A DNA stretch of 64,000 nt from Acidimicrobiia bacterium (GCA_965200835.1 OZ241390.1:2448416-2512415), one strand, 5' to 3'; positions 6,272 through 57,107 are shown, counted from the first letter of the stretch. A program made the numbers and translations. Notes: generated from the sequence alone by a model not told the origin.

Positions 6272-7351
6272 GTGACGCGCTACGCGGAGATTACAGGATG
6301 GGGGAAGGCGCTCCCGCCCGCTGTACTGACCAACGCCGACCTGGAGTCGATCGTCGAGACCAGCGACAGCTGGATAACCAGCCGGAGTGGTATCAAAGAA
6401 CGCAGGATCTCACACCTGGACGCCGCGGAGATGGCCGAGCTGGCGGGCAAGAGAGCCCTGGCCGCCGCAGGTGTGGATGCGCGGGCGGTCGATCTGGTCA
6501 TCAATGCCACCTGCACACCCGCCTCCATAATCCCTGCCTCCGCTTCTTACGTGCAGGACAAGATCGGTGCCGTCAACGCCGGCGCCATGGATCTCAATGC
6601 CAACTGCTCGGGGTTCGTCTACGGATATGTGACCGCCGACTCCCTAGTTAGGTCGGGAACGGTCGACACGGTGCTTCTAGTGGGGGTGGAGCGGCTCAGC
6701 CGGGTGATGGACTACACCGATCGCACCACCTGCATCCTGTTCGGGGACGGCGCGGGTGCCGTGCTCATCCAACCGTCCGACCGGGAGACCGGGGTTATGG
6801 GTTCCGTGCTGGGAGTGGATGGTTCGATGGCCGACATCCTCTGCGTTCCCAACGATGGCACTATCGAGCCTGGTTCGGCAGGTCCCGAGACCCGCCTGGT
6901 CATGGAAGGATCGGACGTGTTCCGCCGGGCGGTGACCGCCATGGCCGACGCCTCCGAATCGGTGGTCCGCCAGGCCGGATGGCAGCTGGACGAGATCGAC
7001 CTGCTGGTGCCGCACCAGGCCAACCAGCGGATCATCGACGCCACTGCCCGCCGCCTCAAGCTCGATCACTCGAGGGTGTTCGTCAACATCCATGCCTATG
7101 GCAACACCAGCGCGGCCACCATCCCCATCGCACTGACGGAGGCGATCGAAGCCGATCGGGTTCCGTCGGGCGCCAACCTGGTGTTCGCGGCGTTCGGGGG
7201 CGGCCTGACCTGGGCGGCGGCCGCGGTGAAGTTCGGCGAGCGGGTGGCTCCCATGTCGGTTATCGAGGAGGAGCTACCGGCCTCGGACCGCTCGGTATGG
7301 GAACTGCTCCAACCCAACTTCGACTACTACGGACGGCTGGAGCTGGTATGA
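6272..7351 (+). CDS. fabH: 3-oxoacyl-ACP synthase III (KAS III)
   Basis: RYAEITGWG...NCSGFVYG...ILFGDGAGAVL...HQAN...AYGNTSAA motifs. GTG start 6272 lies 9-14 nt after a GGAGGA. There is a C-terminal extension of about 35 aa. The stop overlaps the fabG start (ATGA). Confidence 0.85.
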   Translation: MTRYAEITGWGKALPPAVLTNADLESIVETSDSWITSRSGIKERRISHLDAAEMAELAGKRALAAAGVDARAVDLVINATCTPASIIPASASYVQDKIGAVNAGAMDLNANCSGFVYGYVTADSLVRSGTVDTVLLVGVERLSRVMDYTDRTTCILFGDGAGAVLIQPSDRETGVMGSVLGVDGSMADILCVPNDGTIEPGSAGPETRLVMEGSDVFRRAVTAMADASESVVRQAGWQLDEIDLLVPHQANQRIIDATARRLKLDHSRVFVNIHAYGNTSAATIPIALTEAIEADRVPSGANLVFAAFGGGLTWAAAAVKFGERVAPMSVIEEELPASDRSVWELLQPNFDYYGRLELV

Positions 7352-8082
7352 GCAGGATTGCTCTGGTGACGGGGGGCTCCCGCGGGATAGGCCGCGCCAT
7401 CTCGCTGAAGCTCGCGGCGCGCGGGCATCCCGTGGCGGTCAACTACGTTGCCCGACCGGACGCAGCCGACGAGGTCGTGGAGGCGATTCTCGCTGATGGC
7501 GGAACTGCCGCCGCCTTCAAGGCGGATGTCAGCCGTGGCGCGGAGGTCAAGCGGCTGTTCTCCCAGGTGGAGGACAGGTTCGGCCGTCCCTCGATCCTGG
7601 TGAACAACGCGGGCACTACCGCCGACGGATTGCTGGCCCGCCTGAAGGAAGATGCCTGGGATCGGGTCATGGAAATAAACCTCAAGTCCGTCTACCTCTG
7701 CAGCAAGGCAGTGCTGCGGGGGATGCTGAGGGCCCGATGGGGGCGGATCATCTCGCTCGGTTCGGTATCCGGCATGTACGGAAACCCGGGCCAGACCAAC
7801 TACGCGGCCGCCAAGGCGGGAATCATCGCCTTCTCCAAGTCTCTCTCCAAAGAGGTCGGCCCCCGGGGCATAACGGTCAACGTGGTAGCACCGGGGTTCA
7901 TCGAGACCGACCTCACCGCCCGACTGGGGCCCCGGATGATCGAGCAAGTACGCTCCTCCTCCAGCCTCCGCCGGACCGGCCGGCCCGAGGAGGTGGCCTC
8001 GGCGGTCGGTTTCCTGGCCTCGGATGAAGCTTCATACATAACAGGACAAGTTCTGGTCGTCGACGGCGGCCTTGCCCTGTAG
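7348..8082 (+). CDS. fabG: 3-oxoacyl-ACP reductase (SDR)
   Basis: TGGSRGIGRA Rossmann motif, NAG motif and YAAAK catalytic motif. 244 aa. Confidence 0.9.
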   Translation: MSRIALVTGGSRGIGRAISLKLAARGHPVAVNYVARPDAADEVVEAILADGGTAAAFKADVSRGAEVKRLFSQVEDRFGRPSILVNNAGTTADGLLARLKEDAWDRVMEINLKSVYLCSKAVLRGMLRARWGRIISLGSVSGMYGNPGQTNYAAAKAGIIAFSKSLSKEVGPRGITVNVVAPGFIETDLTARLGPRMIEQVRSSSSLRRTGRPEEVASAVGFLASDEASYITGQVLVVDGGLAL

Positions 8083-8123
8083 GACAGACCGTCGAAGACA
8101 ATCACAGCAAGGGAGACGTCAAC

Positions 8124-8363
8124 ATGGATCGATCGCAAGTCCAGTCGAAGATGCGGGATCTGCTCGTGGAGGAACTCGGTCTGGACGCCTCCAAGATCGC
8201 AGACGGATCCACTTTCGAGGAAGATCTCGAAGTGGACTCGCTCGGGGTCGTGGAGCTGATAATGGCGCTCGAGGATGAGTTCGACGTTGCCATTCCCGAC
8301 GAGGAGGCCGAGAGCATCACCACGGTCGGCGAAGCGGTCGATCTGGTAATAGCCAAGCTCTAG
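8124..8363 (+). CDS. acpP: acyl carrier protein
   Basis: 79 aa with the LEVDSLGVVELIMALE motif carrying the phosphopantetheine-attachment Ser. Confidence 0.9.
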   Translation: MDRSQVQSKMRDLLVEELGLDASKIADGSTFEEDLEVDSLGVVELIMALEDEFDVAIPDEEAESITTVGEAVDLVIAKL

Positions 8364-8389
8364 CCGCACCGCTCCCCGAGGAGAGTCGC

Positions 8390-9646
8390 ATGCTTCAAGA
8401 GGCTCGGAGGGTGGTGGTGACCGGCCTGGGCGCTATCACACCCCTCGGTCATACGGTTGCCGAGACCTGGCAGGCCGCGATGGCCGGCCGTTCGGGTATC
8501 GGACCCATCACCCAGTTCGACCCCTCCGCCATCCAGACCCACTTTGCGGGGGAGGTCCGGGACTGGGATCCGGAGTCGGTGATCATCAAGCGGGAGGCCC
8601 GGCGCCTCGACCGGTCCGCTCAGCTGTTCATCGGCGCCTCCCAGGAAGCGATGGACGATGCAGGTCTCGACTTCGTGGCGGATGACACCGACGCCGATCG
8701 AGCTGGGGTGATCGTCGGGTCGGGCTTGGGTGGAATGCTCTCGTTCGACAAGCAGCTGAAGGTGATGATTAGGCGGGGAGCAAGCCGGATAAGCCCGCTG
8801 GCGGTGACCATGATCATCCCGAATGAGGCCGCCGGGGTGGCGTCCATCCGTTTCAACATGCGGGGGCCGGTTACGTGTGCGGTGACCGCCTGTGCAGCAT
8901 CGGCCAACGCCATCGGGGACGCGGCCGAGATAATCCGTCGCGGGGCGGCGGAGGTGATGCTGGCGGGTGGTACCGAGGCGACCATCTGCCAGTTCGGTAT
9001 CGGGTCGTTCAACAAGAGCCGCGCTCTCAGCACTCGCAATGAGGATCCGCCGGGCGCTTCCCGGCCGTTCGATCTGGACCGGGATGGGTTCGTGATGTCC
9101 GAGGGGGCTGCTTGCCTGGTGCTCGAGTCCTACGAGCGGGCCATCGGGCGCGGTGCTCGCATATACGGTGAGGTGGTCGGATACGGGATGACCTCGGATG
9201 CATATCACGTGACCCTTCCTAAGCCTGGGGGCCGAGGCCCGGCCAAGGCGATGCAGGCTGCCCTGGAACACGCCGGTCTGAGGCCCGAACAGCTGGATTA
9301 CATAAACGCCCATGGCACGTCTACCAAGGCCAATGACGTTACCGAGACGCGGGCCATCAAGTTGGCATTGGGGGAGAAGGCGGCCCGGGCGGTGCCTGTT
9401 TCGTCCACCAAGTCGATGAGCGGGCACCTGATGGGTGGGGCCGGGGCGATCGAGTCCATCTTCTGCCTCATGGCTATGAATTCCGGGGTGATCCCTCCCA
9501 CCATCAACTACCAGACCCCGGATCCTGAGTGCGATCTCGACTACGTACCCAACGAGGCGCGGGAGGCGCAGGTCAGCTACGCCATGACCAACTCATTCGG
9601 GTTCGGAGGCCACAACGTAGCCCTGATCTTCGGCCCCGGAAGCTAG
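8390..9646 (+). CDS. fabF: 3-oxoacyl-ACP synthase II (KAS II)
   Basis: 418 aa. Cys-His-His thiolase-fold motifs (TACAASANAIGDA, NAHGTST, NSFGFGGHNVALIF). Confidence 0.9.
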   Translation: MLQEARRVVVTGLGAITPLGHTVAETWQAAMAGRSGIGPITQFDPSAIQTHFAGEVRDWDPESVIIKREARRLDRSAQLFIGASQEAMDDAGLDFVADDTDADRAGVIVGSGLGGMLSFDKQLKVMIRRGASRISPLAVTMIIPNEAAGVASIRFNMRGPVTCAVTACAASANAIGDAAEIIRRGAAEVMLAGGTEATICQFGIGSFNKSRALSTRNEDPPGASRPFDLDRDGFVMSEGAACLVLESYERAIGRGARIYGEVVGYGMTSDAYHVTLPKPGGRGPAKAMQAALEHAGLRPEQLDYINAHGTSTKANDVTETRAIKLALGEKAARAVPVSSTKSMSGHLMGGAGAIESIFCLMAMNSGVIPPTINYQTPDPECDLDYVPNEAREAQVSYAMTNSFGFGGHNVALIFGPGS

Positions 9647-9835
9647 GGAAGCCAGGGGCAGTCCGTACGGAGCAGATTGGAAGGCCTGTGGCCGGTCCAA
9701 CTCCCGCATCGGAAGGTATGACTAGATGATGGTGTCCGACGTCATCCTTTCTTCATCGTGCCTCGCAGCGGTTCAACGGAACGTAGTGGACTAATACGAC
9801 CCGGTATTGATCTGGTTCAGCATGACCGCCGAGTG

Positions 9836-10099
9836 ATGGGAGTGTCGGGAGTGGAACGCAAACCTCAAATAATCGGGCCCGATGGCAAGCCTGTGGGCGT
9901 TACGGAGGTAGGATTTCGCGCTACGGGAGAATATTGGAACGAAAACCTGCTGGACGACGGTACAGTTGCTCGCTTGAAGCTGGTTGCAACACATTTCTAC
10001 CGACTTGAAGGAGAGAAGGATCCGAAGGGCCAGCCTGCCTACCTGATTGAGTCAAGCAACGTTGTGGCCATCTCGGCCAGTGTAGAGGGCGGTGCGTGA
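9836..10099 (+). CDS. hypothetical protein (first gene of TA-like islet)
   Basis: ORF 9758..10099. It lies in the low-GC patch and its stop overlaps the next ORF start (coupled). No recognisable domain and the start is uncertain. Confidence 0.3.
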   Translation: MGVSGVERKPQIIGPDGKPVGVTEVGFRATGEYWNENLLDDGTVARLKLVATHFYRLEGEKDPKGQPAYLIESSNVVAISASVEGGA

Positions 10100-10578
10100 T
10101 GGTGATGATGTTGTCTGAGCGCAAGTCTGAGATCACCCGGATGCCATTAAGGCGGCCGATGCTCAAGTCCGATGTGGAGAAGGAGATACTCCAAAGCCGA
10201 AGCGATGATCGGCAAGAATATTGGCCAACCGACACGGACTATGACCGACTGTTGTCGACTAACCCGGCCGGGGAAGAGGATACAGTTCCCGTTGTAGAGA
10301 CGGAGTCCGACGGTCATTCTGATTCTGCAATCGACCGGCTAGTTGTCTTATGGGCTGAAATCGTAGTCTCCCATGCGGTTGTTCGCGACATCGATGATCC
10401 ATCCGGATACACGGCTACAGTCGCAGGAGTAGAGGGTGCCTGGGCCTTCGGTGTATCTGAGGAAGAAGCACTTTACGAATTAAGGTCCGTACTGATCGGC
10501 TGGGCTTGCCTCAGGCTCGAGGACGGAGACGACGACATTCCCAGTATGGAGGGCCTTCATCTCGTCGCCAACCAATGA
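10096..10578 (+). CDS. HicB-like (UPF0150) antitoxin-family protein
   Basis: The C-terminal 60 aa (TATVAGVEGAWAFGVSEEEALYELRSVLIGWACLRLEDGDDDIPSMEG) matches the HicB/UPF0150 fold. The stop overlaps the start of the next small ORF (ATGA). Confidence 0.5.
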   Translation: MMVMMLSERKSEITRMPLRRPMLKSDVEKEILQSRSDDRQEYWPTDTDYDRLLSTNPAGEEDTVPVVETESDGHSDSAIDRLVVLWAEIVVSHAVVRDIDDPSGYTATVAGVEGAWAFGVSEEEALYELRSVLIGWACLRLEDGDDDIPSMEGLHLVANQ

Positions 10579-10763
10579 GCTCCAAGTTAGCGCCGACCAC
10601 CAGGCGAGTCCTGATTCGACAACCCTTGGACCTCGGCTGGGAGGGCCCGAGAACAGCTAAGGGTCACGATTACATGGTCAAGGGTCAACAAAAGGTACGC
10701 ATTCCCAATCCCCACCACCGAAAGGACCTTGGCGTGTGTTTACTTGTTCTGATCCTGAAATAG
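10575..10763 (+). CDS. HicA-like mRNA-interferase toxin (putative)
   Basis: A 62-aa ORF inside ORF 10506..10763. GWEGPRTAKGHDYMV...KVRIPNPHHRKDLG resembles the HicA core (GWxxxRxxGSH...HPxKDL). Confidence 0.45.
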   Translation: MSSKLAPTTRRVLIRQPLDLGWEGPRTAKGHDYMVKGQQKVRIPNPHHRKDLGVCLLVLILK

Positions 10764-10845
10764 GCAGACGAATCACGCCAGGAGTGGCTTGATACCCTAA
10801 AGTGATCTTGATAATTCATGAGATTTGGGTATCTACTTTGAGTAG

Positions 10846-11232
10846 TCAAACAGTGCCTAGTAAGGGTGTTATCGCGTAGGTTTTGCGCTCCGCAGAAGTT
10901 TCTCGAACGTAGCGGGTGCGATCGTGGGTGGTTGGTGCCCTGACCCACTCAAGCAGGTCTCTGTGGCCGGTCACGAGGTAATCGGCTGCCTGGTCCCGGG
11001 CAAGGGCCACAAGGTAGTCGTCGTCAACGTCACGGGTCTCCTGCTTGACCACCGCCGGGTTCGGGACAACTTCGGCTAGTCCCCGGATCGTTTTGATGTA
11101 GCGCTGGGCAACGTTGAGGTTGATCCACTTGCGCATCCTCGGACGACGGGTGAGGACGTCGGCGACCTCCGCGATTAGTTCCGGGCACATGACGATGTCG
11201 AAGTCCCTTGATCTGGTTAGCCAGCGCTGCAC
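10846..11232 (-). pseudogene. PIN-domain toxin fragment (TIGR00305-like, N-terminally truncated)
   Basis: The C-terminal two thirds of a PIN-family TA toxin (RDVDDDYLVALARDQAADYLVTGHRDLL) are present. The first about 30 aa with the DTNV motif are missing and an in-frame stop lies upstream. Confidence 0.4.
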
Positions 11233-11352
11233 GATTCGATACGACGGCCCGGACTGAGTCGCTGCGGATACCCAAACGTTGGATCAAGCATTACCCGCAC
11301 AGACGGCTGACGGAGCGGGCACGCCGACGACGCCGCACGGCCACGAACCTCT

Positions 11353-11712
11353 TTGCGTGACGAGATCCATCGTCTCGTCGACGGAGAGTTCAGAGTTGCG
11401 GCGACGTTCGCCACGAGATCCAACCGCGTACGAGACGCGTGGGCTGACTTTGACCCCGGTGCTGCACTCGACCGGCTTGCCTTATGGGCTGACATCGCCC
11501 TTTCCCATGCCTTCGTTCGTGGCACGGACGATCCTGCCGGACACATTGCGAGAGTCGCCGGTATAGAAGGTGCTTGGGCCTTCGGTGAAACCGAGCAGGA
11601 AGCACTCGACGAACTGAGGTCGGTGCTGATCGGTTGGGCACTCCGCAAGCTCGAAGGCGGAGACGACGATATTCCCAGCATGCGGGGCGTTCATCTCGTA
11701 GTCAAGCGATAA
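11353..11712 (+). CDS. HicB-like paralog (orphan)
   Basis: DDPAGHIARVAGIEGAWAFGETEQEALDELRSVLIGWALRKLEGGDDDIPSMRG is about 65% identical to the C-terminus of the 10096..10578 ORF. No partner toxin ORF lies downstream. Confidence 0.45.
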   Translation: MRDEIHRLVDGEFRVAATFATRSNRVRDAWADFDPGAALDRLALWADIALSHAFVRGTDDPAGHIARVAGIEGAWAFGETEQEALDELRSVLIGWALRKLEGGDDDIPSMRGVHLVVKR

Positions 11713-11770
11713 GTCGGACGCTATCGCTCGACCACGAGGGATGGGATCAGCCCGGCCTTCCAGGCTTTGC

Positions 11771-12019
11771 CTACTGATCGGGCCGGTGAGTGCCATCCCG
11801 GCGGAGCGAGACGGCGGTGACGACCAGACCGAACAGGGCGATCACGACTGCTATACCCAGGAGTAGGGCGACTACCACCGGTATACCTCCGAGCAAGGCA
11901 CCGAGTCCGAGGACCACCATACCGAGCAGGACAGCGGAGGCTCCGCCTACCACCAGGCTGACCAACCCGAAGTCGGCCAGAGAACTCCCGGACCTCCGTT
12001 CTTGTCGGTCGCCCGTCAA
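11771..12019 (-). CDS. small hydrophobic membrane protein (hypothetical)
   Basis: 82-aa ORF with two strongly hydrophobic helices. Could be the second half of a frameshifted membrane gene together with 12016..12306. Confidence 0.25.
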   Translation of the reverse strand: MTGDRQERRSGSSLADFGLVSLVVGGASAVLLGMVVLGLGALLGGIPVVVALLLGIAVVIALFGLVVTAVSLRRDGTHRPDQ

Positions 12020-12306
12020 GGCTCGGTGGGTCGGTGGTCGTCAGGCCGGGCGGATGGTGTTTCGGCATCGAGCTTTCGAGCCTGCTGGTTGTCCCGCCAC
12101 TCCCGGAGGGAACGGTCGGCCAGGACCACCACCACCCCGACACCTGCGGCAGCAACCAGACCGGAAGCCAGCGCGATGACCGGACCCATGATCGGACTAC
12201 ACGAGGTGTCTGCACATCCCACCGCCGTGACCGTCCAGCCGATGAAGCCTCCCACCAGCCCGGCGCCCACCACCGGTAAGAAGAAGCTGTAGCGGAGTCG
12301 GGCCAT
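12016..12306 (-). CDS. small membrane protein (hypothetical)
   Basis: 96-aa ORF with two TM helices, adjacent to and in a different frame from 11771..12019. Confidence 0.25.
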   Translation of the reverse strand: MARLRYSFFLPVVGAGLVGGFIGWTVTAVGCADTSCSPIMGPVIALASGLVAAAGVGVVVVLADRSLREWRDNQQARKLDAETPSARPDDHRPTEP

Positions 12307-12307
12307 C

Positions 12308-13069
12308 TCAACCGTTCCTTTCCAGGGGACGCCCTCGACGATCGTACCCGGCCGCCTCCATCAGGCCCGGAGGGGTCAGTTCAGGAAGGATCGAGACCGA
12401 GCTGACTCGGTGGGGGTCCAGCGGCATGACGGCCAGGCGAGCATCAGCGGTCCAGGCCAGGAACGTCAGCGTGGAGACGGTCACCAGCAGCCCGGCGGCC
12501 GCGACAGGTTGCAGACCCAGGACGGAGACGATACCCAGCGGCAGCAGACCCAGACGCACCAACCACAACGCCCCTGGGAGGGCTCGGGCATATGCCCAAC
12601 CGCCCAACCATCCGAAGGCGACCAGTACCCATCCGGATGGGCTCACCCCCGGATCCCCGAGACCGCCCACGACTGCCGGTAGCCAGATCAGGCCGAGGGC
12701 GAGCATGGTCGCTCGGGTGGGGACCCGATCGGGTTTCACCTGGAGAAACCAACTGTCCAGGGATCGGGTCCAGGCCAGCGTCACGCCGGCTCCATGGGTT
12801 ACCAGCGCCATGATCCACCACATGTCCACCGGAAGGGCGATGGCAACCACCGCCCAGGCCCCGGCTATCACCGCTACGGAGTTCCGCACCCATCTGCCAG
12901 GGGACAGCAGCAGGGCGACCACGTTTACGGCGGTGGCCAGCAGCAGGCCGGCGGCCAGCAAGGTAGCGCTGTGGCTGTCCCACCGCGAAGTCTGGAATGC
13001 CAGGCGCCCGGTCCACAACAGGCTGCCGAGCAGGATGCCGACCGCCGCGGCCGTGACTCTGTAAGGCAC
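12308..13069 (-). CDS. integral membrane protein (hypothetical)
   Basis: ORF 12308..13207 with at least 7 hydrophobic helices. A GTG at 13069 avoids overlap with the divergent NUDIX gene. Confidence 0.4.
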   Translation of the reverse strand: MPYRVTAAAVGILLGSLLWTGRLAFQTSRWDSHSATLLAAGLLLATAVNVVALLLSPGRWVRNSVAVIAGAWAVVAIALPVDMWWIMALVTHGAGVTLAWTRSLDSWFLQVKPDRVPTRATMLALGLIWLPAVVGGLGDPGVSPSGWVLVAFGWLGGWAYARALPGALWLVRLGLLPLGIVSVLGLQPVAAAGLLVTVSTLTFLAWTADARLAVMPLDPHRVSSVSILPELTPPGLMEAAGYDRRGRPLERNG

Positions 13070-13123
13070 GCCTCTATTGTGGCGCGCCGGGACGGGTGAT
13101 GGGAACCTCGGTACGATGGTCGG

Positions 13124-13648
13124 ATGGCAGTGCCGGGCATCGATCAACCGTGGCCGGGCGAGGCCGTGTTCTGTTCCGACTGCGGGACGCGCCTGGAGCG
13201 CCTCCACAGATACGGCCGGGATCGGGGCGTATGTCCCGGTTGCGGCCGGATCGATTTCCGGTCACCCTCCCTGGCGGTGGCAGTCGTCCTGCGCGACTCC
13301 CGGGGTCGGGTCCTGCTGGTCAAGCGTGGTCCGGGATCCTCTCGCCCAGGCTTGTGGTCCATTCCGGCGGGTTACATGGATTACGGGGAGGAAGTACGAG
13401 CGGCTGGTGCCCGTGAGGTGCTCGAGGAGACCGGCCTGGTCGTGGAGCTGGGTGCGCCGGTGTTCGTGGCTACCAACTTCCACGATCCCCTCAAGGTGAG
13501 CGTCTGTATCTGGTTCGACGGGAGGGTGGTGGCCGGTGACCCGGTGGCCGGATCGGACGCGGTGGAGGTGGGTTGGTTCCGCCTCGATGAGCTTCCAGAG
13601 CTTGCCTTCGATACCGATACGGAGCTCTTCTCGAAGATGGAAGGCTGA
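13124..13648 (+). CDS. NUDIX hydrolase with N-terminal zinc ribbon
   Basis: CSDCG...CPGCG zinc ribbon followed by the Nudix box GYMDYGEEVRAAGAREVLEETG. Confidence 0.8.
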   Translation: MAVPGIDQPWPGEAVFCSDCGTRLERLHRYGRDRGVCPGCGRIDFRSPSLAVAVVLRDSRGRVLLVKRGPGSSRPGLWSIPAGYMDYGEEVRAAGAREVLEETGLVVELGAPVFVATNFHDPLKVSVCIWFDGRVVAGDPVAGSDAVEVGWFRLDELPELAFDTDTELFSKMEG

Positions 13649-53081: not shown

Positions 53082-56000
53082 TGCCCAAGCCCAACCGCTA
53101 CATCACCGACCATCTCGAATGGATCGGCTTCGTTCGGCCCACCGGTCTGGTGGTGTCAGCTCCCGCCTTGGTAAAGGCGGGCGTCATCCTCAACCGTCGG
53201 GATCGGGCCGGCCAGCAACTACTCAAGGAGTGCCTACCGAACGGCTCGGGTACGACGGGATCACAACCCGACCCGGCCCCCGTACTTCCGGACTTCCCGG
53301 CCTTCGCCCGTACGGTGCTCGGCTGGAGTTTCTCTCCCAAGGGCTATGCCGGTACGGAGGAATCACCGATTCCCTCCGAGCTCGAGCTCTCCCTACCCGA
53401 TTCCGGAGGCGGGTTCCGGCCTGACTTCGCAGTTCTAGCCGACCCTGCCCGGTCCCGGCCGCCCGCCACCAACGGAAACAAGCGTGAAGGGACCGACCGG
53501 GCATCGCCCTGGCAGCTGCTGGTCAGCACCTACGAGCCCTGCGAAGACTTCGACAAGACAGCCTCGAACGGCTCGGGAGTGGAGATGTCGCCCCACAGCC
53601 GGATGGAGCGCCTGCTACGTGACACCCGGGTGCCCGCCGGGCTCCTTTTCGACGGAACGACCATTCGCCTGGTGTCCGCTCCCAAGGGCGAGAGCTCGGG
53701 ATGGATGGACTTCCAGGTGGGCGACATGATCCAGACCGCTGGGCGCCCGATCTGCACTGCGATGCGCGAGCTGCTCAGCCAGACCCGGCTCCTAGTCGTA
53801 GGGCGCGACCAGCGCCTGGCCGCGCTGCTGGAGGACAGCCGGAAGTTCCAGAACGAGGTGAGCGAGCGCCTGGCCGAGCAGGTACTGCACGCTCTGTACG
53901 AGCTACTGCGAGGTTTCCAAGCCGCCGATGACACCGCAAAAGGCCAGCTACTTGGACGCTGGCTGGCTGACCAACCCGATGAGATCTACAGGGGGTTGCT
54001 CACCGTGGTGCTGCGCCTGGTCTATCTGCTGTACGCCGAGGAACGCGACCTGCTGCCCCAGGACGAGACCTTCCTAGGGCCTACTCGGTGTCAGGCCTAT
54101 ATGAGCGTCTGCGGGCTGACGCCTCCCTCCATCCCGACACTATGGACCAGCGCTACGGAGCCTATGCCCAGCTCCTAGCCCTATGGCGCATGGTTCATGA
54201 CGGGGCCAAAGCGACCGACATGGTGATGTCGCCCAAGTATGGCGACCTCTTTTGCCCGACCGCTACCCCTTCCTCGAAGGCAGTCTGGGGGCCAGGCAGA
54301 CGACTGACCGCATCGAGGCACCGCTGGTACCCGACGGCACTATCCATCGGGTGCTGGAGAAGCTGATCGTGCTGGACTCCGAGCGCATCTCCTACCGAGC
54401 TCTCGATGTGGAGCATATCGGTTCGGTGTACGAGACCATGATGGGTTTCCGCCTCGAGAGGGCCACCGGTCGCAGCATCGCCATCAAGGCTGCCAAGAAA
54501 CACGGCGCTCCGGCCACCATCAACCTCGATGAACTGCTCTGTCAGGCTTCCAGTAGCCGGACCAAGTGGGTCAAGGATCGGACCGATCGACAACTAAGCG
54601 CAAAGGTGGGCCGGGCGGTCCGGGAAGCCACCACGCTGGAGGAGCTCCATGCCGCCCTCGATCGGGTGATCGACCGCCAGGCCACACCTGATCTCGTCCC
54701 GCCCGGCGCCATGGTGCTGCAACCCAGCCAGGAGCGCCGCCGCTCGGGTTCCCACTACACGCCCCGCAGCCTGACGGAGCCGATCGTCCGCAAGGCGCTG
54801 GACCCAATCCTGGACCGCCTCGCTGAAGAACAAGAGGGCCCACTTCGACCGGAACAAATCCTCGACCTGAAGGTGTGCGACCCGGCCATGGGCTCGGCGG
54901 CGTTCCTGGTAGAAGCGTGCCGCCAGCTGGCCGACGCCCTGATCGAAGCTTGGCGGGCCCACGAAGAAGCACCCGACCTCCCCCCGGGCGAGGACCAGCA
55001 GATCTTCGCTCGCCGACTGGTGGCTCAACGCTGCCTCTACGGAGTCGACCGCAACCCCAAGGCAGTGGACCTAGCCAAGCTGTCGTTGTGGCTCATCACC
55101 CTGTCCAAGGACCATCCGCTCACTTTCCTCGACCACGCCCTCCGCCATGGCGACTCGCTAGTGGGTCTGTCGATCCCTCAGATAAGGGCTTTCCATTGGA
55201 AAGGCAACGCTCCCGCCTTTCAGGAGGGTTTTGAGGCCCTCCGAGGACAGCAGCTACTCGCCGATGCAGCCGAGCTACGCAGGTGGATTCGCGAGGAAGG
55301 CGACACCATATCCGAGCGGGAGATGCGCGAAGCGTGGATGGAGTCGCGTGAAGTGACCGACGACCTCCGCTTGTTGGGGGACCTGGTGCTGGCGGCGTTC
55401 TTCGATGAGTCCACGCCAACGGCGCGGGAGGCACGTCGTAAAAGGTTCGCGAATGGCGTTCAGAACGGTATCGAGGGACAGTATCGCGCCTGGATGGAGG
55501 AACTTCGCAACCAGGACCGACCCCTCGCGCCACTCCACTGGCAGATCGAGTTTCCCGAGGTCTTCGACCGTCCCAATCCCGGCTTCGATGTCATAGTCGG
55601 TAATCCACCATTCGCTGGTAACAACACTATTACCGCTTCGAACATCAACCGCTATTCCCACTGGCTCAAGGAGATGCATGTTGAGAGCCACGGCAATTCG
55701 GACTTGGTAGCTCACTTCTTTCGGCGAGCCTTCAATCTGGTCCGTATGGGTGGAACCTTTGGTCTTATCGCTACCAATAGCATCTCCCAAGGTGACACAC
55801 GCTCGACGGGACTACGATGGATATGCAAGAACGGCGGAGAAATATTTTGTGTTCGCAAGCGTGTGAAGTGGCCTGGACAAGCTGCGGTAGTAGTGAGTGT
55901 ACTCCACATCAGCAGAGGTGGATTTCACGGCTACAGGCTCCTTGACGGTCACTCCGTATCAAAGATCACAGCCTTCTTATACTATCGAGGCAAGAACGAT

Positions 56001-57107
56001 GATCCGAGGTCGTTGAAAGCTAACATAGCCAAGAGTTTCTTGGGTAGTATAATACTGGGGATGGGGTTTACTTTTAACGATAACGATAAGGAGCGTGTGG
56101 CTACACCAATTAGAGAGATGGAAAGACTCCTAAGGTCTAATCCTTCGAATCAAGTGGTTATTTGTCCATATATAGGAGGGAGGGAGCTAAATAACAACCC
56201 GACCCAAAAAAACCATCGTTCCGTAATTGACTTCGGGGAGAGAAGTTTGTCAAAGTGCAGATTCCATTGGCCCGACTTACTAGAGATAGTAACCAATAAG
56301 GTTAGACCAATACGAATCAAGAAGCGTTATCCTCGTATGGCGAATGAGTGGCGGAAACATTATGCACCCCAATTAAAACTATACGATTCTATTAGGGGTT
56401 TAAAACGGGTTATGGCAACTTGTAGGGTTAGCCAACACATGTCTTTTGCCTTTCTGTCTAACGGAATGGTCTATGCAGACTCATTAGTTATATTCTCCTA
56501 TGAGAGATTCGCCGCATTCTGCGCGCTCCAAGCAAGACCTCACGAGATCTGGTCTCGATTCTTCGGATCCTCGATGAAGGACGACTTACGCTATACAGTC
56601 ACAGACTGTTTCGAGACATTTCCACTTCCGAATAGCTGGGAGAGCCGCTCCGACTTCGAATCAGCAGGTGAGGAATACTACGAGTTCCGGGCAGACCTGA
56701 TGAAATTCAACGATGAAGGCTTGACCAAGACATACAACCGATTCCATGATCCCAGCGAGAACGATGCCCGGATTATCGAACTCCGTAGACTGCATGCCGC
56801 CATGGATCGGGTTGTACTGGACGCATACGGGTGGAGTGACATCCCGACGGACTGTGAGTTCCTGCTCGACTACCCGATCGATGAGGACAACTGGGGCAGG
56901 AAGAAGAAGCCTTACCGCTACCGCTGGCCTGACGAGGTTCGTGATGAGGTGCTGGCTCGGTTGCTGGAGCTCAATGCCGAGCGGGCTGCTGAAGAAGCAC
57001 GGTCCGGTCAAGCCAACCCACCGCGTGGCCGGGGACGGCTCCAAAAGTCGCCACCCACGACTTCTCCATCCAACCAACTCACCTTGAGCCCTTCCAATGG
57101 CACCTGA
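53081..57107 (+). pseudogene. Eco57I/type IIG-like N6-adenine DNA methyltransferase (DISARM DrmMI-like / PglX-like), two frameshifts
   Basis: ORF 53063..54178 in frame A, ORF 54088..54366 in frame B (SGLYERLRADASLHPD...) and ORF 54252..57107 in frame C. Frame C carries motif I (DPAMGSAAFLVEA) and motif IV (VIVGNPPF). An ATG at 53081 overlaps the upstream TGA (TGATG). Confidence 0.75.
55740..56800 (+). other. low-GC (about 45-50%) segment inside the methyltransferase ORF
   Basis: Base composition falls sharply against about 68% flanks while the reading frame stays open (ICKNGGEIFCVRKRVKW ... NRFHDPSEND). It lies downstream of the NPPF catalytic motif, where target-recognition domains sit. Confidence 0.7.

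Follow-up and report, generated by a model that had tools for sequence, protein, structure and literature searches.

A decaying toxin-antitoxin islet behind the fab operon of a sponge-symbiont actinobacterium, with a three-gene hyp-hicB-hicA module

Toxin-antitoxin (TA) modules with the toxin HicA have been catalogued in 14 genetic contexts (Gerdes 2024, mBio 15:e03293-23). Classes 1-10 of this catalogue are two-gene, classes 11-13 are single-gene and class 14 is an SMC-HicA fusion; HicA contexts with three genes are not described in it. In classical hicAB (classes 3 and 4), hicA is the upstream gene and HicB possesses a C-terminal helix-turn-helix (HTH) or ribbon-helix-helix (RHH) domain. In classes 2 and 5-8 the antitoxin gene normally comes first, and Class 2 is defined as a two-gene operon with a HicB of 63-103 amino acids (aa) and no DNA-binding domain. 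Toxin-antitoxin-chaperone (TAC) systems with a SecB-like chaperone include the HicAB-based Mmet-TAC of Methylomonas methanica, and in these systems the antitoxin has a C-terminal chaperone-addiction (ChAD) extension on which the chaperone acts (Bordes et al. 2016, Nat Commun 7:13339). The locus described here is a TA islet of ~2.1 kb (9647-11770) in 64,000 nucleotides of DNA from an Acidimicrobiia bacterium (GCA_965200835.1, OZ241390.1:2448416-2512415; this whole stretch is referred to as the window, and positions are counted from its first letter). It consists of a hyp-hicB1-hicA triad, a pseudogene of a PIN-family toxin and a second hicB gene, hicB2 (Table 1). As a genomic feature the islet is ordinary, being a small, foreign, decaying TA cluster; the three-gene form of HicBA within it is apparently widespread and undescribed. 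The explanation offered for the whole, namely a horizontally acquired and decaying TA patch with these three units and with hyp as a third component of HicBA, is considered very probable.

The three open reading frames (ORFs) of the triad overlap at both junctions, as the earlier note on this DNA had stated, and those of hyp and hicB1 are intact. The protein HicB1 (pI 4.26; 61 homologues found) is composed of a variable acidic N-terminal extension of ~80 aa followed by a C-terminal UPF0150 (HicB-fold) domain which, by homology, would bind and block HicA. Both marks of a HicB antitoxin (UPF0150 / HicB fold, PF21748) are present, a profile match and an adjacent co-oriented hicA, and Pfam and NCBIfam scans revealed no DNA-binding domain in the protein. 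The absence of such a domain and the order hicB-hicA set the module apart from classical hicAB. The earlier note was right about the antitoxin-first order and wrong to see it as a reversal of the canonical arrangement, for it is the documented one in classes 2 and 5-8.

The closest described relative is a Class 2 example, the hicBA of Stanieria cyanosphaera PCC 7437 plasmid pSTA7437.02 (HicB AFZ38268, 80 aa; HicA AFZ38267, 72 aa). It has in common with the window the antitoxin-then-toxin order, overlapping genes and a HicB without a DNA-binding domain, and both belong to the same sequence clade, with the HicA motifs GG.H..M, IPNPH and ILRQA.IS..EW and a HicB core ending LP.ID.IDLN. The window departs from Class 2 in its three genes and its 159-aa HicB1: an extra overlapping gene, hyp, stands upstream, and HicB bears an N-terminal extension (20-90 aa). 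No hyp accompanies the Stanieria plasmid hicBA. A full-text search of the open-access literature returned nothing that matched a tripartite or three-gene HicBA system; as only open-access literature was covered, an earlier description of the triad is possible.

In a metagenome scan, a hyp homologue was present at 71 loci; a closer alignment was used, so that the set is biased to relatives with an E.WNEYL motif. Of 56 non-redundant genes following hyp, 33 match UPF0150, and of 43 third genes 26 match HicA_toxin (PF07927; E<1e-3), with intergenic distances running from a 4-base overlap to a gap of ~28 bases, mostly <21. In all contexts examined, the gene immediately downstream of a close hyp homologue is a UPF0150 gene, usually with an intact or uncalled hicA behind it. 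The surroundings of these triads differ by locus, with haem biosynthesis genes, MgtE, S-layer-homology genes or a group II intron in some settings and a type III restriction-modification system plus an AAA_14/DUF4143 gene in another. The earlier note had listed hyp only as a hypothetical ORF of the operon; rather than a passenger, it is the conserved first gene of a three-gene module in many lineages and is regarded here, on sequence evidence, as a genuine third component of a HicBA subfamily.

Next to intact triads (L168:1-5870 and 7039-8796; L094:5326-5859) lie genes of defence type, namely those for a type III methyltransferase and a ResIII helicase, for an ATPase (AAA_14/DUF4143) and for a protein with a faint SocA_Panacea antitoxin domain, surroundings that fit a defence or TA island. 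In a few loci (L110, L130, L145; L161-L163), hyp homologues precede other pairs: one pair consists of a divergent HicB-like protein (W.V.D.ETGIFG) and a 98-aa protein (ESHHHM...), another of a 155-165-aa and a 119-aa protein. These divergent pairs have no Pfam match, and hyp may serve several toxin-antitoxin-like pairs.

Triad HicBs measure 105-165 aa and their hyp-less relatives, which lack the extension, 80-97 aa. Two of the short HicBs, P0072 (92 aa; L176:2501-2779) and P0068 (97 aa; L173:2501-2794), carry the N-terminus of hyp, MERKGQVARPDGKLVG..., at their start (E = 1e-5 and 1e-6), the first 16-20 residues of hyp being joined directly to the HicB core. Their genes form two-gene hicB-hicA loci with an intact HicA of 75-76 aa and are in-frame deletion derivatives of triads. 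Because these derivatives and the cyanobacterial hicB-hicA run without hyp, hyp would not be needed for neutralisation of the toxin.

A profile search of 1.84 billion representative proteins assigned 1,111 representatives to the hyp family at E<=1e-3 and 152 at E<=1e-10, the relatives being cluster representatives at 50% identity. The 23 close homologues are all 79-104 aa. Pfam, NCBIfam, PHROGs and PADLOC have no match to the family, and every relative is named "hypothetical protein" at its source. The hosts are bacteria and archaea, the named ones including Acidobacteriota, Hyphomicrobiaceae and a methanogen-related archaeon. Searched with tblastn, ~123,000 sequenced plasmids and phages contain no homologue, and only 2 of 2.9 million IMG/VR contigs carry hyp; the family seems to be limited to uncultured lineages. 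Purifying selection on hyp is strong (nonsynonymous divergence, dN, 0.16-0.26; synonymous divergence, dS, saturated), and the family is acidic, with a median pI of 5.2 and 95% of members below 7, HicA having a pI of 10.5.

The AlphaFold2 model of hyp is all-beta with a long hairpin (predicted local distance difference test, pLDDT, 84). Tandem duplications are seen in 40 of 241 family members, and one tandem member models as a confident pseudo-dimer (pLDDT 95.9; predicted template-modelling score, pTM, 0.85), for which reason the single-domain proteins are likely dimers; hyp itself probably works as one. Foldseek comparison with PDB and BFVD gave no match at E <= 0.001 (best template-modelling score, TM, 0.41 for the monomer and 0.25 for the tandem), and a hidden Markov model (HMM) search of PDB sequences with hyp found nothing. 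In the catalogue of Gerdes, Class 8 HicB has a domain of unknown function at its N-terminus, which might be a tandem hyp fused to it.

To judge from its synteny, charge and oligomeric form and from the overlap of the cistrons, hyp is most likely a protein-binding accessory subunit of the HicB/HicA complex, at best guess a stabiliser, adaptor or sensor that would act together with HicB, the basic HicA or both. That HicBA is a widespread three-component system in which hyp, as a new all-beta dimeric fold, controls the antitoxin or the toxin is put forward tentatively; as examples, hyp may sense phage infection or stabilise HicB. Several points tell against such a role. Approximately one quarter of the hyp loci with room downstream have unrelated neighbours (dioxygenase, nitroreductase, glyoxalase), so that hyp can exist alone; fusions of hyp to HicB or HicA are absent from the 241 family members; and a physical hyp-HicB or hyp-HicA interaction would be deduced from synteny only.

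The parallel with TAC systems raises the question of whether hyp could serve the variable N-terminal extension of HicB as its dedicated chaperone. In TAC as in the window, a HicA/HicB pair shares an operon with a third gene, which encodes a small acidic accessory protein, and the antitoxin has a variable extension; the extension is a feature of the triad HicBs and is missing from hyp-less relatives, and hyp resembles SecB in being an acidic beta-rich oligomer. The window differs from TAC in that its accessory gene opens the operon instead of closing it, its antitoxin extension is at the N-terminus and not at the C-terminus, and hyp has no SecB sequence or fold similarity (Foldseek E = 2.4, probability 0.16-0.21). 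Furthermore, some triad HicBs carry only ~20 extra residues, and the extension is acidic and would probably be disordered rather than aggregation-prone. A chaperone role is therefore judged unlikely. As a candidate SecB-like protein, hyp was rejected: the Foldseek matches are at noise level (E = 2.4-3.0, TM ~0.3) and no Pfam or NCBIfam SecB match exists.

In omega-epsilon-zeta and paaR-paaA-parE, a separate first gene precedes an antitoxin without a DNA-binding domain, as it does in the window, and the regulators concerned are DNA-binding proteins (RHH or HTH). By analogy with omega or PaaR, hyp could be the missing transcriptional regulator of a HicB that has no DNA-binding domain. Its place as first gene of the operon and the dimeric architecture implied by the tandem duplications would suit such a role, and the regulation of HicBA classes without a DNA-binding domain is called unexplained by Gerdes (2024). 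Unlike omega and PaaR, hyp is acidic, as is its family as a whole, and all-beta with no detectable DNA-binding fold, bearing no likeness to RHH, HTH or AbrB folds in PDB. The DNA upstream of triads is not conserved and contains no conserved operator-like repeat, only a CCTACACTTC element being common to three of seven triads, and same-clade relatives that have no hyp have no DNA-binding domain either. Regulation of transcription by hyp is thus very unlikely. A consensus scan found no sigma-70-like promoter in the leader of the window triad.

The hicA gene of the window carries a nonsense mutation. Its 62-aa product scores 19-20 bits (20.4) against HicA_toxin, below the gathering cut-off of 27, and the read-through product 26.1 (the other cut-offs are 27.3 for UPF0150, 27 for PIN_3 and 29.15 bits for TIGR00305). 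Homology to HicA is nonetheless secure, because homologues at ~50% identity score 35-37 bits, passing Pfam, and because of the 26 matching third genes given above; HicA is likewise intact, and above the cut-off, in the closest triads (L167, L168, L091 and L096). It is by way of these homologues that the HicA-like ORF proposed in the earlier note is upheld, whereas the HicB and PIN assignments are significant by their own profile scores.

After hyp-hicB elsewhere, HicA is 72-76 aa in length and ends ...LL..ILRQAGIS..EW.... In the window the ancestral ORF continues through the TAG to a TGA at 10803-10805 (77 codons), and read-through (ILK, stop, ADESRQEWLDTLK, then TGA) keeps the homology in frame for 14 further codons. 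The TAG aligns with a Gln in L167, L168, L091, L093 and L096, the codon being CAG in L168 and L093, the two that were read as DNA, and Gln occupies this position (Gln63) in 24 of 26 HicA-family sequences. The hydrophobic tail GVCLLVLILK reported in the earlier note is present, although it is not atypical: since the TAG sits at a nearly invariant Gln with homology beyond it, the tail is a normal helix alpha-2 cut short. By homology, HicA would be a small basic RNase with a double-stranded-RNA-binding fold, and the CAG-to-TAG change would take away a tail of 14 residues together with the last part of helix alpha-2, leaving the alpha-beta-beta-beta-alpha architecture predicted to be incomplete from the Gln onward. 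Past the stop, residues have drifted within the near-invariant QAGI motif (Gly65-to-Asp, Ile66-to-Glu), which suggests that the tail is no longer under selection, and Phe17-to-Pro replaces a conserved residue in helix alpha-1. The toxin is probably weakened or dead (inactive).

Some features speak for residual activity. All catalytic-core motifs are retained in the 62-aa HicA, namely G21, W22, G24 and P25 (GW.GP), His31, M34 and P44-N-P-H47, and the protein covers positions 4-54 of the 58-position Pfam model, so that it could still be active. His31, to which published HicA work assigns a catalytic role, is conserved in 26 of 27 family members, and HicA of Escherichia coli ends a few residues beyond the same point. 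The module might accordingly still be a working addiction or defence system with a toxic 62-aa HicA and with hyp and HicB1 kept for its control, the more so as hyp and hicB1 are intact, the cistrons overlap and the identical allele recurs across several independent assemblies. This is rather unlikely in view of the conserved Gln and QAGI motif that the stop interrupts, the drift after it, which is expected once selection is released, and the Pro in helix alpha-1. In addition, both neighbouring TA genes are clearly degraded, truncation of the toxin recurs elsewhere (43 aa in L175 against 76 aa in L176), and Gerdes (2024) identifies helix alpha-2 as the one that contacts HicB. The truncated and full-length forms just named come from the same hicBA locus in different assemblies, the 76-aa HicA at L176:2776-3006 and the 43-aa fragment at L175:2875-3006; this locus adjoins a type I restriction (HsdR) gene and is a second case of toxin-first decay.

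The second antitoxin gene, hicB2, has no hyp upstream and, having no hicA beside it, is an orphan. The earlier note's claim of two related HicB-like proteins holds: both score above the UPF0150 cut-off, and the two are alike (67% identity over 84 residues, E = 1e-38). A recent in-place duplication of hicB, which would make the islet one rearranged element rather than a hotspot with separate acquisitions, could be suspected from the 237-nt direct repeat, 77% identical, whose copies lie 1.1 kb apart in the same orientation. The divergence over 76 shared codons (dN 0.175, dS 0.75, dN/dS 0.23) indicates a long separation under selection, hicB2 is closer to HicB of the unrelated contig L094 (69% identity) than to hicB1 (67%), and the GC contents are unlike (0.544 for hicB1, 0.600 for hicB2). 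Recent duplication is accordingly a distinctly improbable account, and hicB2 is interpreted as an old paralogue diverged under selection. It would have split from hicB1 long ago and lost its own hyp and hicA, and it may act in trans against HicA-type toxins. A candidate hicA remnant past hicB2 (GWDQPG..FAY) was rejected, scoring -0.7 bits with the HicA-family HMM and having only ~30 nt of weak DNA similarity. The gene caller used for public assemblies calls a 104-aa antisense ORF at 11482-11796 (-), and hicB2 is missing from the protein collection.

The third unit of the islet is a toxin gene of the PIN_3 family (TIGR00305). The earlier note identified the toxin and its GHRDLL motif correctly, but not the supposed N-terminal truncation, as coding sequence persists behind an in-frame TGA. 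The ORF scores 34.7 bits against PIN_3 (profile positions 30-113 of 115) and 30.2 bits against TIGR00305; with the stop replaced, the PIN_3 score rises to 47.5 bits and the match extends over positions 5-113. Upstream of the 128-aa ORF the same frame reads ...GNA, TGA, SNVWVSAATQSGPSYRIV..., with a possible original GTG start at 11322. Two plasmid-borne homologues served for comparison: WP_041647966 of Aromatoleum aromaticum EbN1 plasmid 2, annotated as 'putative toxin-antitoxin system toxin component, PIN family' and preceded by an RHH antitoxin, and WP_264007046 of Mycobacterium branderi pJCM12687, both PIN_3 / TIGR00305 proteins. They are 36-39% identical to the conceptual window protein over 72-83% of its length, align from the residue just after the stop and share with it the motifs D.NV, E, D..D.YL and TGD.DLL. 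In a three-way alignment, the stop falls exactly at the first catalytic Asp (D-P/T-N-V), and TGH stands where the homologues have TGD, this Asp being replaced by His. Thus, no intact ORF with the four acidic active-site residues exists in the window: two are lost, and the Glu and the D..D motif are kept. The window copy also differs by a 12-residue C-terminal insertion and by its neighbourhood: the plasmid homologues carry an 87-90-aa gene immediately upstream, whereas the window copy has no upstream antitoxin gene and only ~30 bp separate its putative start from the divergent hicB2. The gene is interpreted as a full-length pseudogene, not a 5' deleted one, and the toxin would have lost its upstream antitoxin gene together with two catalytic acidic residues. 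The head-to-head arrangement at 11322-11353 would be accounted for by a single deletion that took out the antitoxin gene of the PIN toxin, another hyp and the 5' part of hicB2.

The host is a sponge-symbiont actinobacterium, a high-GC member of Acidimicrobiia (window mean GC 64.7%), and the islet fills the 2,124 bp between fabF and tm1. The FabF of this host shares 88% identity with its counterpart in a Candidatus Spongiisociaceae metagenome-assembled genome and 82-83% with those of three further relatives. In these four Spongiisociaceae/Acidimicrobiia genomes (L011-L014), tm1 begins ~80-250 bp past fabF (tblastn) and is followed by tm2, mem299, nudix and pgm, in the order and orientation found to the right of the islet; hyp, hicB, hicA and PIN are absent from their 21-kb loci. 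In windows of 300 bp, GC is 0.51-0.57 at ~9650-11000 and 0.60-0.63 until ~11.75 kb, against 0.63-0.69 in the flanks. The segment 9650-10850 (GC 0.541 against the window mean of 0.647; z = -3.3 among 1.2-kb windows) is the second-lowest GC region of the 64 kb. GC at third codon positions (GC3) is 0.55 in hyp, 0.59 in hicB1, 0.64 in hicA and 0.61 in hicB2, compared with 0.72-0.81 in neighbouring host genes. The low GC at ~9.7-10.9 kb reported in the earlier note is thus real, and its view of a horizontally acquired, partly degraded TA cluster directly after the fab operon agrees with the foreign composition and with the empty site after fabF in all four relatives.

Given the synteny of the relatives and the composition, one gain of ~2.1 kb is far more economical than four losses, and a foreign TA patch would have landed between the convergent fabF and tm1 in this Spongiisociaceae lineage. 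That the family's ancestor already had the islet and the four relatives lost it is conceivable in that only four were compared, all of them separate species at 82-88% FabF identity. That account is highly improbable: it requires four independent precise losses, the GC3 of 0.55-0.64 is out of keeping with the flanking genes, and the same triad occurs in unrelated contexts of other genomes. Against horizontal arrival itself must be set that no mobility gene, recombinase, tRNA or Rfam family was found to explain it, that the repeats in 9400-12100, whether direct or inverted, are short and no more than chance would give, a 10-nt inverted one on either side of the PIN gene among them, and that the ends of the insertion cannot be fixed to single-base precision, since the intergenic DNA of the relatives does not align.

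Both internal stop codons, in hicA and the PIN gene, are real, since independent assemblies carry them: from 9647 to 10984-11166, five metagenomic contigs differ from the window by 0-1 mismatches, and a contig from another sample covering 8016-12805 has a single one. Among the short-read contigs shown, five entering from fabF and seven from tm2 end at ~10984-11166 or ~11631-11739, within the PIN pseudogene or within the 3' part of hicB2, which is conserved, and only L179 crosses. These breaks suggest segments common to paralogues, or variable among co-occurring strains.

Table 1. Features of the islet and its two flanking genes (positions in the window).
Feature	Position	Strand	Description
fabF	8390-9646	+	Left flank; last gene of fabD-fabH-fabG-acpP-fabF; Pfam ketoacyl-synt and Ketoacyl-synt_C
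leader	9647-9850	+	Intergenic, GC 0.574; terminator-like hairpin 9728-9746, then T-rich run (consensus scan)
hyp	9851-10099	+	82 aa, acidic, predicted all-beta; first gene of the module
hicB1	10099-10578	+	159 aa; start overlaps hyp stop (TGATG); UPF0150 32.4 bits at residues 92-145
hicA	10575-10763	+	62 aa/codons, TAG at 10761-10763; overlaps hicB1 (ATGA)
PIN_3-family (TIGR00305) toxin pseudogene	10846-11322	-	Longest ORF 10846-11232 (128 aa); in-frame TGA 11284-11286
hicB2	11353-11712	+	119 aa, TTG start; UPF0150 34.2 bits at residues 49-104
right junction	11713-11770		~30 nt of weak DNA similarity to hicA start
tm1	11771-12019	-	Right flank; small membrane-protein gene, 82 aa; adjoins fabF in relatives

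To the right of the islet, 11771-13207 (-) encodes three membrane proteins, tm1 (82 aa), tm2 (96 aa) and one of 299 aa, which are syntenic beside fabF in four of four relatives and have no Pfam or NCBIfam match above threshold. The fabF-tm1 spacer of two relatives (L011:11254-11340 and L014:11254-11400) is composed of tandem heptamers, GTGAGTA/GTGAGTG in one and GTGGCCA-like in the other, followed by their reverse complements, which gives a long repeat-built hairpin between the convergent genes; the window holds the TA islet where L011 and L014 have this hairpin. Elsewhere in the window, a 951-aa ORF at 54252-57107 (+) with an NPPF N6-adenine methyltransferase motif resembles a type IIG or BREX-type enzyme. 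Its C-terminal half has the lowest GC of the window (0.47-0.53 at 55.1-56.3 kb), and the region may be a second foreign or defence-related segment.

The islet shows TA modules piling up at one intergenic site and decaying toxin-first, leaving orphan antitoxins behind. The HicBA clade catalogued as two-gene ("Class 2") also exists as a three-gene form, and hyp is a concrete candidate for the control of HicBA modules without a DNA-binding domain, for which natural controls are on hand in the hyp-hicB deletion fusions and the hyp-less relatives. If the three-component reading is true, hyp would supply the missing regulatory input of these modules.

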